Shown: in pieces, positions 47,419 to 48,843 of the stretch
Position numbering within the stretch: the first letter of the stretch is position 1
How the letters are laid out: the number at the start of each line of letters is the position of its first letter
NCBI RefSeq assembly: GCF_056712565.1
Contig: NZ_CM160072.1
DNA length: 64,000 bases
Strand: one strand, 5' to 3'
Program-made: the position numbers and the translations under genes
The notes under the pieces: generated by a model
Databases searched by the model: none
The model's input: the letters and a program-made list of their open reading frames with translations, nothing else
What the model was told of the DNA's origin: nothing

Positions 47419-48078
47419 TCACCCAAACGTCTCTTCAGGCCATTGGCTGGCGATAACTTTCCCCACAACGGAACAACTCTCATTGCATGGGATCATTGGG
47501 TATTGTGGGTTTAGTGGCTGTAGAAACACCTGACCGCTATCCCTGATCAGTTTCTTGAAGGTAAATTCATCACCACCAAGTCTGGCTATGCAGAAATCGC
47601 CGGGCTCAACAGCTTGCTCAGGGTCAACCAGAATTAACATCCCGTCAGGAAAGCTGGGTTTGGAACCTGTTGGTGCGGTCATTGAGTTACCTTCAACCTC
47701 AAGCCAGAATGCAGAGTCACTGGCTTTTTTGGTTGTGCTTACCAATCTCTCCGCATCGCCTTTGGTAAAGGTTCTGAGTTCTGGAGAGAACATCCCAGCC
47801 TGAACATGAGAAAAAACAGGGTACTCATATTGTTTTTTAACTGGGGCCGATGAGTATTCGCCAACAGGTGAAAATGTCCCGTCGTGGTTGAATGATATGT
47901 TATCAATACCAAGGTATTTAAACACCACACCAATATCACTAAGAGATGGATGACGAGATCCGCGCAACCAGTGTCCAATCCCACCCTGCGTCATACCTAG
48001 CTCTTCGGCTAACTTCTCTTGAGTTATGCCGAGCTCTTTCATTCTGGATCTAGCCAGTTCATACCATTTCATTTTCAT
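47419..48078 (-). CDS. cI: CI prophage repressor, hybrid: non-lambda HTH domain with lambda-type C-terminal domain
   Basis: [23 protein letters not shown]; from [21 protein letters not shown] to ...[12 protein letters not shown] matches lambda cI; start ATG at 48078 or 48072. Confidence 0.88.
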
Positions 48079-48189
48079 GTCCTTATTATTACGCTCTGTA
48101 CTGGAACCATCCATGCACAATGTGTATTTTTACTTGTATTCGCAAAGTACATATTGTATTTTTTTATTCGTGTTTACTATGGAGGGCAT
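48079..48189. promoter_or_regulatory. Divergent oR/pRM/pR region between cI and cro
   Basis: 110-bp AT-rich intergenic region between divergent repressor genes; recurring TGTATT heptamers; operators not delimited. Confidence 0.5.
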
Positions 48190-48405
48190 ATGAGCAACCT
48201 ACGAAAATATCGAGAGTCACTGAATATCTCTCAAACAACACTTGCTAAGGCAGTTGGATGCACACAGGGAGCTATCGGACATTGGGAATCTGGTCGTCGC
48301 TTCCCAGACCTTAAAACATGCCGTGCTCTTGTTGCGTGCCTAAACAAGTTAGGCGCAAAAGTCAGTCTTGATGACGTGTTCCCGCCGGAACACAAAGCCG
48401 CTTAA
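48190..48405 (+). CDS. cro: Cro-like HTH repressor
   Basis: 71 aa from ATG at 48190 after GGAGGG RBS; HTH ISQTTLAKAVGCTQGAIGHW. Confidence 0.8.
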   Translation: MSNLRKYRESLNISQTTLAKAVGCTQGAIGHWESGRRFPDLKTCRALVACLNKLGAKVSLDDVFPPEHKAA

Positions 48406-48415
48406 TAAGCGGATC

Positions 48416-48461
48416 CGCTCTTTGTAACAACGGACATTCGTCCTACGTCGCTGAAAAGCGA
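48416..48461 (+). promoter_or_regulatory. nutR: boxA, spacer hairpin, boxB
   Basis: CGCTCTTTGTAACAA boxA, GGACattcGTCC hairpin, TCGC-TGAAAA-GCGA boxB. Confidence 0.7.
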
Positions 48462-48546
48462 GTTCCAAGATATCTGACCAACTAAGGCCATATGCGTTTC
48501 CACGCATACCTTTCAACTAACTATTCACTATTGGAAATCTTAAGAA

Positions 48547-48843
48547 ATGGAAAGAACAAGTTACAGCAAACTATCACAGCGTGACGTTGATCGCGCAGAA
48601 ACAGATTTACTTATCAATCTGTCAGCTATTACCCAGCGCGGTCTGGCAAAGATGATTGGCTGTCATGAATCGAAGATAAGCAGAACGGACTGGAGATTTA
48701 TTGCTTCGGTCTTGTGTGCTTTCGGAATGGCATCAGACATCAGTCCGATTAGCAGGGCTTTTAAGTATGCGCTTGATGGACTCACCAATAAAAAACGCCC
48801 GGCGGCAACCGAGCGTTCTGAACAAATCCAGATGGAATTCTGA
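48547..48843 (+). CDS. cII: CII transcriptional activator, hybrid with lambda-type C-terminus
   Basis: 98 aa; C-terminal ...TNKKRPAATERSEQIQMEF matches lambda CII, N-terminal two-thirds differ. Confidence 0.75.
   Translation: MERTSYSKLSQRDVDRAETDLLINLSAITQRGLAKMIGCHESKISRTDWRFIASVLCAFGMASDISPISRAFKYALDGLTNKKRPAATERSEQIQMEF

Follow-up and report, generated by a model that had tools for sequence, protein, structure and literature searches.

The DNA analysed here (the window) is a stretch of 64,000 nucleotides (nt) from contig NZ_CM160072.1 of assembly GCF_056712565.1, and our subject is the immunity region that it contains, from the repressor gene cI through cro to the regulatory gene cII. The region belongs to an Escherichia coli prophage whose early region is lambdoid, as judged from the open reading frame (ORF) listing, from reading of the sequence, and from Pfam, PADLOC and PHROG scans. 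According to the ORF listing, all reading frames are intact across the region. The features that make up the switch are as follows.

47419–48078, minus strand: cI, whole gene (HTH_3 and Peptidase_S24)
47830–48078, minus strand: cI codons 1–83, non-lambda HTH_3 DNA-binding domain and upstream linker; 19–26% amino acid (aa) identity to lambda, without nt homology
47419–47829, minus strand: cI codons 84–219 and stop, lambda-type hinge and S24 C-terminal domain; 93.4% nt identity and 135/136 aa to lambda
48087–48103, 48113–48129 and 48145–48161, between the divergent cI and cro: right operator region (OR), three putative operators of 17 base pairs (bp), centres 26 and 32 bp apart
45827–45843, 45852–45868 and 45885–45901: left operator region (OL), three putative cI operators of 17 bp each, with 25 and 33 bp from centre to centre
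48190–48405, plus strand: cro, 71 aa, HTH_3-type, non-lambda (Pfam HTH_3, 4.2e-12)
48547–48843, plus strand: cII, whole gene (Phage_CII)
48547–48780, plus strand: cII codons 1–78, core of the phage-21/HK022/933W type (Pfam Phage_CII PF05269, 7e-34)
48781–48843, plus strand: cII codons 79–98 and stop, lambda-type tail; 20/20 aa, one synonymous difference to lambda

When lambda 33000–41500 was searched against the whole window with blastn, four homologous blocks were recovered with nothing detectable between them. Their E-values span 9e-42 to 0, which rules out chance.

Block 1: 43264–44745, 98.4% identity
Block 2: 45948–46069, minus strand, 90.2% identity to lambda 35708–35826, ending at the rexB stop
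Block 3: 47418–47829, 93.4% identity (E 4e-179) to lambda 37226–37637, the 3′ 412 nt of cI
Block 4: 48781–51274, 97.2% identity over 2494 nt to lambda 38591–41084

Across 47830–48780, between blocks 3 and 4, blastn detected no nucleotide homology to lambda. Alignment of cI, cro and cII with lambda and other phages, a check proposed in a preliminary description of this stretch, placed the two breakpoints at 47829/47830 in cI and at 48780/48781 in cII. Identities were worked out domain by domain against 12 phages.

A switch of the Stx2 II/Nil2 type

The DNA between the two breakpoints, together with OL, encodes an immunity specificity that is not of the imm lambda type, as the N-terminal domain of the repressor is 19–26% identical to that of lambda, Cro is 25% identical to lambda Cro, and the operator half-site is AAGTACA as against TATCACCG in lambda. 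The prophage would therefore be expected to be heteroimmune to lambda. The N-terminal domain of cI matches Pfam HTH_3 (1.9e-10, residues 11–58), and its codons 1–83 are 100% identical to those of Shiga toxin (Stx) 2 converting phage II (Stx2 II) and of Nil2 across the annotated overlap. Cro is 100% identical in Stx2 II, Nil2, phage 1717 and others. Together with operators that match at every position in OR and with 0–1 mismatches in OL, the 100% identity of cI and Cro places the switch in the Stx2 II/Nil2-type immunity group.

The operators are putative sites annotated in AP005154, which we mapped onto the window. All six are related 17-bp sequences with a half-site of the form A-A-G/A-T-A-C-A, and they stand at the expected places for a putative tripartite OR and OL, with cI and cro divergent. 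A repeat search of the OR region returned a single direct pair and a single inverted pair, from which the operators could not be made out. A promoter consensus scan yielded fewer sites overall than in shuffled sequences, and none in OR that would pass as convincing PR or PRM hexamers. The spacings of the putative operators (25/33 in OL, 26/32 in OR) differ from those of lambda (24/20 and 23/24), despite a cooperativity domain that is lambda-identical at 135/136 residues.

The start of cI lies most likely at 48078, or at 48072 as in the Nil2 annotation, and an upstream TTG at 48120 is disfavoured. Records differ on this point (48070–48120, minus strand), with MDGSS... in Stx2 II, MKWYE... in Nil2 and MKMKW... 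in our ORF listing. The second ATG (48072) is preceded at a distance of 7 nt by an AAGGA Shine-Dalgarno-like motif. Because this motif precedes the ATG, cI may be translated from a leadered mRNA, unlike the lambda pRM transcript, which is leaderless.

This switch is widespread. The 2.2 kb from 47000 to 49200 is 100% identical in six phage records, which correspond to four independently sequenced phages (coliphages ev207, ev017, PhiR57_1 and PhiR63_2), and the cI-cro-cII DNA is ~97% identical in Stx2 II, the Stx1 converting phage and the PA-series Stx phages. At the protein level, 58 phage records have a cI of at least 99% identity, and 59 have such a Cro; the full-length 100% matches to cI include Stx2 II, the Stx1-converting phage, the PA series and ev207/ev017, and Nil2 has the same cI sequence, annotated from a shorter start. 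Bacterial genomes carry it as well: cI-cro-cII is present (at least 80% coverage) in 630 of 5,426 complete E. coli genomes, with a 100% match in the type strain DSM 30083. The window-type CI is the invariant ‘clade I’ repressor of Stx phages, with 61% overall identity to lambda CI (PMC8951638).

Relative to Stx2 II (AP005154), the Stx1 phage (AP005153), Nil2 (AJ413274) and ev207/ev017, cI and Cro are 100% identical, OR is the same, and the N-nutL-OL DNA is 93% identical. Stx2 II and Nil2 differ from the window in their cII tail, which is of the HK022 type and matches at 12/21 positions, in the genes that fill the slot occupied by rexA-rexB in lambda (the rex slot), and in O and P, which are non-lambda. 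A window-type cI (97%) and cro (99%) were also seen next to a lambda-type cII in vB_EcoP-683R2 (683R2), a P22-like phage of the genus Lederbergvirus (locus L011, 2169–3568).

The junction in cI

Residues 84–219 of cI align with residues 102–237 of lambda cI, and 135 of the 136 are identical in the protein alignment. The junction falls between codons 83 and 84 (47829/47830), at the YEYP hinge motif and 10 residues upstream of the predicted autocleavage site, and at the YEYP codons DNA identity to lambda drops from 93% to undetectable in less than 10 nt. At the other end of the gene, lambda homology stops one base beyond the cI stop codon.

The S24 domain of lambda repressor is responsible for dimerisation, cooperativity and RecA-stimulated self-cleavage. 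In the window, the C-terminal domain matches Pfam Peptidase_S24 (PF00717, 1.1e-28), and its predicted cleavage site (Ala94-Gly95) and catalytic residues (Ser132/Lys175) lie in a context identical to that of lambda A111-G112, S149 and K192. Lambda repressor structures (PDB 3bdn, 8gmu and 1f39) match cI. The two repressors are therefore alike from the YEYP hinge onward, including the cleavage site, the Ser/Lys dyad and the cooperativity surface, and unlike in the DNA-binding domain, where the N-terminal part of the window protein is also 18 residues shorter. The sole aa change in the 136-residue block is at codon 112 (47743–47745), which encodes Leu for lambda Trp129 (mature numbering), one of three tryptophans in lambda repressor. 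Leu at this position is common to Stx2 II and Nil2, and 683R2 retains Trp.

Near identity at the protein level conceals considerable divergence at the DNA level. The block differs from lambda by 26 synonymous codons and one non-synonymous codon, giving a synonymous divergence (dS) of 0.37, a non-synonymous divergence (dN) of 0.003, and a dN/dS of ~0.008. By comparison, dS to lambda in the arms is ~0.03 (kil, cIII, ea10 and ral), 0.08 (O), 0.16 (P) and 0.075 (ninB); the gam row was left out of this tabulation, as a 1-nt alignment gap put its frame out. Between the window and Stx2 II, dS of the same C-terminal block is only 0.07. Because the domain is this close to Stx2 II and this far from lambda, it is likely to have arrived with the immunity module and not with the lambda-like arms, and the cI junction appears to be old and to move together with that module.

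A further indication of age comes from Salmonella phage 101962B_sal5 (sal5), whose cI is a uniformly diverged ortholog (54% N-terminal and 80% C-terminal identity; proportion of synonymous differences, pS, 0.81). Since its divergence is uniform, the window-type combination would be at least as old as that of lambda, and the direction of any graft seems not to be assignable. The C-terminal DNA of 683R2 cI is about equally far from the window (dS 0.48) and from lambda (dS 0.34).

The junction in cII

In CII, residues 79–98 (LTNKKRPAATERSEQIQMEF) are identical to lambda at 20 of 20 positions, as against 26% for residues 1–77. The latter are instead 88–97% identical to those of phages 21, HK629, HK022, 933W and Nil2. 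Full-length identity is 99% to 2G7b, 92% to HK629 and 87% to phage 21, and by tblastn and alignment the protein belongs to the phage-21/HK022 CII subtype (82–99% aa identity to HK022, HK97, 933W, 21, HK629 and 2G7b). The DNA of the core is near-invariant among 21-type phages, and the tail occurs as two haplotypes: lambda-type in the window, phage 21, HK629 and Lambdavirus PDP110P1; and HK022-type in HK022, Nil2 and Stx2 II, of which 933W and H-19B have variants.

The junction lies between codons 78 and 79 (48780/48781), 63 nt before the end of cII, and from there block 4 continues via oop, O, P, ren and ninB to 51274. Divergence of the tail from lambda is as low as that of the adjoining O (dS 0.08), and the cII junction appears to be the left-hand limit of a lambda-like replication block that is the younger of the two. 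Because 683R2 joins window-type cI and cro to a lambda-type cII, cII assorts independently of the immunity genes. Three further features bear on the position of this junction.

48556–48569, minus strand: putative pRE CII-binding site (TTGCTGTAACTTGT), matching TTGY-N6-TTGY
48789–48865, minus strand: predicted 77-nt gene for the oop antisense RNA, which overlaps cII by 55 nt at the cII 3′ end; 74/77 to the lambda oop interval
48819 to 48792, minus strand: predicted terminator t_o of oop (hairpin and T-run)

The putative pRE site is the single TTGY-N6-TTGY match in 43–52 kb, and its offset from the cII start is the same as in the phage 21 annotation. For oop, the lambda interval was placed by the 77-nt length and 55-nt overlap stated in PMC3349717. 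The gene is predicted in the window from homology, from the terminator match and from the ATTAT −10 of p_o, which the window retains at the O start; phages 21 and 434 have oop annotated in the same location. An Rfam scan of 43–52 kb for oop and nut families returned the lambda cIII thermometer alone, and because Rfam has no oop family, oop was mapped via homology and a terminator scan.

Lambda homology begins 8 nt outside the 3′ (terminator) end of oop. In lambda, oop overlaps the last 55 nt of cII, and the last 17 cII codons are dispensable for CII activity and required for OOP control; the imm21 difference has been located ‘within cII left of oop’ (PMC3349717). In AJ237660, the record of phage 21, a ‘border lambda immunity’ is marked in cII at nt 665/666, under the oop RNA. 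The window has an imm21-type junction, likewise inside cII and 27 nt off the position of phage 21’s. Because the edge of oop adjoins the breakpoint and the tail is dispensable for activity, the breakpoint would coincide with a functional boundary, the classical imm21-type border.

The comparison with phage 21 (AJ237660 and OL657228; lambda imm21 hybrid, OM418625) can be drawn more closely. Both phages have a CII core of one family (88% over residues 1–77), a lambda-like tail overlapped by oop, and a border within the gene. The phage 21 tail differs in having a 3-nt insertion and further changes (RPVCKTERSEQ), and its border lies 36 nt from the end of cII as against 63 nt in the window. The cI and cro genes of phage 21 are of the P22 type and are unrelated to the immunity of the window.

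Probable exchange of repressor domains across the family

The cI C-terminal block was searched against 5.8 billion proteins, and 110 cluster representatives were analysed. One C-terminal lineage was found to carry three N-terminal families, namely a window-type (40 clusters), a lambda-type (25 clusters) and a PDP110P1-type (45 clusters). Pairs drawn from different families in which the C-terminal domains are at least 93% identical and the N-terminal domains at most 25% identical number 157, and for 69 of the 110 representatives the nearest C-terminal domain comes from another N-terminal family. With three DNA-binding families sharing a C-terminal domain in so many mixed pairs, swapping at the hinge would seem to be routine. 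Most junction estimates (158 of 176) fall at residues 83–89, and 16 of 176 fall at residues 122–124, just before the catalytic GNSM motif.

The cI of PDP110P1 (locus L010, 2587–2923) has the third N-terminal type and is identical to the C-terminal domain of lambda and the window only from window residue ~123. Its switch point relative to the window thus lies downstream of the cleavage site, an example of the second junction zone. We also considered whether the C-terminal domain tracks the host, an idea that was dropped as too simple, since E. coli proteins P0075 and P0110 have C-terminal identities of only 62–68%.

Domain mosaicism of lambdoid repressors has been published for 933W, HK022 and H-19B (PMC3202840), in which the DNA-binding domain of one phage is likewise found on the C-terminal domain of another. 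Our own alignment agrees, with identical C-terminal domains and different N-terminal domains in 933W and H-19B. That case concerns another C-terminal lineage, 24–27% identical to that of the window, and 933W repressor is reported to bind DNA non-cooperatively (PMC3202840).

Probable origin of the two junctions

We consider it very probable that the window holds a complete non-lambda lysis-lysogeny switch, of the common, already sequenced Stx2 II/Nil2 type, with two breakpoints of different history, in a prophage whose recombination and replication arms are lambda-like. The cI protein would then be a two-domain repressor, in which a non-lambda helix-turn-helix domain reads six putative 17-bp operators (half-site AAGTACA) and is joined to a lambda-type S24 domain. 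Its junction would be an old, domain-level join, one instance of three unrelated-looking DNA-binding families recombining repeatedly onto one C-terminal lineage. The junction in cII, by contrast, would mark the left edge of a younger lambda-like block, leaving a phage-21-type core with a lambda-shared tail as in phage 21 itself. The sequence relationships, the breakpoints, the levels of divergence and the distribution are direct observations. Recombination among lambdoid phages has probably generated both junctions, only those that separate functional modules having survived. Such mosaics follow a textbook principle, the modular theory of phage evolution.

The preliminary description, accurate in what it said of the lambda sequence, already identified the composition of the region. 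It regarded the cI C-terminal domain and the last ~20 residues of CII as lambda-like (135/136 and 20/20 identical); the cI DNA-binding domain, operators, cro and CII N-terminus as non-lambda (19–26% identity, another half-site, 25% and 26%, respectively); and a rex-slot cassette as lying just beyond the lambda-like 3′ end of cI, and all of this was borne out. Homology ends one base past the cI stop, and the first cassette gene starts at 47379. Its analogy with lambda imm-hybrid phages holds in part, as the breakpoints do lie inside cI and cII and the cII border is of the imm21 type, but there is no new graft and the two junctions differ in age. The proposal that foreign specificity had been grafted onto lambda-type gene ends in this phage is not supported, because both genes are established alleles of known phages, cI being uniformly similar in 58 records and cII being full-length of the 21/HK022/933W type. 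The feature is thus already known, and the original observation was correct with an interpretation that is partly supported.

A recent double crossover, the model implicit in the preliminary description, in which a lambda-like phage gained foreign immunity by exchanges in cI and cII in one event, in the manner of the laboratory hybrids lambda imm21 and imm434, would account for the lambda-like flanks on both sides of the region (97–98%) and for a cII junction whose divergence is as low as that of O and which resembles the imm21 border. We nevertheless think such an event unlikely. The cI C-terminal block is 5–13 times more diverged from lambda (dS 0.37) than are the lambda-like arms (0.03–0.16), and it is near the Stx2 II allele (0.07). 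Moreover, non-lambda DNA restarts directly to the left of cI and extends as far as 44746, taking in the rex-slot cassette, OL, N and sieB, so cI is not the left boundary of the substitution. Finally, the same chimeric cI occurs in Stx2 II and Nil2, phages whose replication genes are non-lambda.

It is far less probable still that no recombination took place and that cI diverged in place, its DNA-binding domain changing fast under immunity selection while its C-terminal domain was conserved. The N-terminal domains are distant homologs, as both are HTH_3 with a similar recognition helix (QSGVGALFN versus QGGIGHWLR) and a similar 17-bp operator architecture, and a C-terminal dN/dS of ~0.008 does speak of strong conservation. 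Divergence in place would, however, leave even synonymous divergence along the gene and cannot account for a collapse of DNA identity from 93% to undetectable within less than 10 nt. It would also be at odds with a window C-terminal domain that is 99% identical to lambda, which has the other N-terminal type, and 80% identical to its own type in Salmonella (pS 0.81), and with 157 cross-type pairs that have near-identical C-terminal domains. An assembly chimera or misjoined contig is excluded as the source of the hybrid genes, given that 47000–49200 is 100% identical in six records (four independent phages), that cI-cro-cII is identical in complete genomes including DSM 30083, and that reading frames are intact throughout.

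Several points weigh against the account of an established switch with two junctions of different age. The estimates of dS come from short stretches of sequence, the C-terminal block having 136 codons and the cII tail 20. In the family survey, the sequences are related, so the counts of cross-family pairs are not independent events, and the clustering of junctions at residues 83–89 is partly forced, because the conserved (Y/F)EYP is the first alignable point between families. The operator sites derive from the putative annotation of another group, and binding to them, like the specificity of immunity, the expression of oop and the cleavage of the repressor, is predicted from sequence.

It is tempting to speculate about why the C-terminal domains of the window and lambda proteins are 99% identical despite a dS of 0.37. 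Perhaps the lambda-type S24 domain is a shared chassis, kept near-identical among heteroimmune phages of one gene pool because the repressors of co-resident or superinfecting phages form mixed dimers or mixed higher-order contacts through it. Or, perhaps it is mainly a recombination handle for swapping immunity specificity on one side and rex-slot defence cassettes on the other. We hold this idea tentatively and would not expect it to prove correct, but if it did, interaction between repressors would make the thresholds for induction, or the immunity, of one prophage depend on another.

For the window itself, assignment of the prophage to a Stx2 II/Nil2-like immunity type matters little. Its greater value is perhaps as a worked example of lambdoid regulatory genes assembled from exchangeable sub-gene modules, in which DNA-binding specificity (the N-terminal domain, the operators and Cro) moves independently of the induction and oligomerisation domain and of the block formed by the cII tail, oop and the replication genes. 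The family-wide tabulation may serve as a quantification of this known principle.

The rex-slot cassette and neighbouring genes

The region between cI and N holds the rex-slot cassette and the end of the cI operon.

46073–47379, minus strand: rex-slot cassette, two overlapping genes in place of rexA-rexB that fit exactly into the space from the cI stop to t_imm
46822–47379, minus strand: proximal gene, 185 aa, PDC-M24 A; weak, sub-threshold Pfam match to DUF6978
46073–46825, minus strand: distal gene, 250 aa, PDC-M24 B; Pfam DUF1828 above threshold
45948–46069, minus strand: lambda-homologous patch of 122 bp ending the cI operon, 90.2% to lambda; aligns with the annotated tM terminator region of 933W
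46069 to 46048, minus strand: predicted t_imm-like intrinsic terminator (hairpin and T-run), directly after the stop of the distal gene

Both cassette proteins match the candidate defence system PDC-M24 (A and B) in PADLOC, and both belong to PHROG families of unknown function (2017 and 1960). A literature search on DUF1828 and phage yielded no paper of relevance to the cassette. Stx2 II and Nil2 have the same cassette flanks with other genes between them, and the genes in this slot vary more widely, from rexAB in lambda and hex in 434 to stk and others in 933W, with different genes again in Stx2 II/Nil2 and in sal5. Mosaic diversity is known to concentrate in the interval between cI and N, where rexAB and BstA reside (PMC8585504).

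Farther out on either side lie the following genes.

44766–45347, plus strand: sieB-like gene, non-lambda (Pfam SieB, PHROG 1301)
45364–45708, minus strand: N, non-lambda
48876–49775, plus strand: O, lambda-type replication initiator, inside the 97.2% block (dS to lambda O, 0.08); the lambda-like replication module begins here
49772–50473, plus strand: P, inside lambda-like block 4

The arginine-rich motif of N (GTAASRRRARRA) presumably resembles that of phage 21 yet is distinct from it. The N DNA is 93% identical to N of Stx2 II and Nil2, and the gene is labelled ‘similar to HK97 N’ in AP005154. The left arm, which is lambda-like, contains the cIII thermoregulator RNA element of lambda at 43683–43741 on the minus strand (Rfam RF01804, 88.5 bits).

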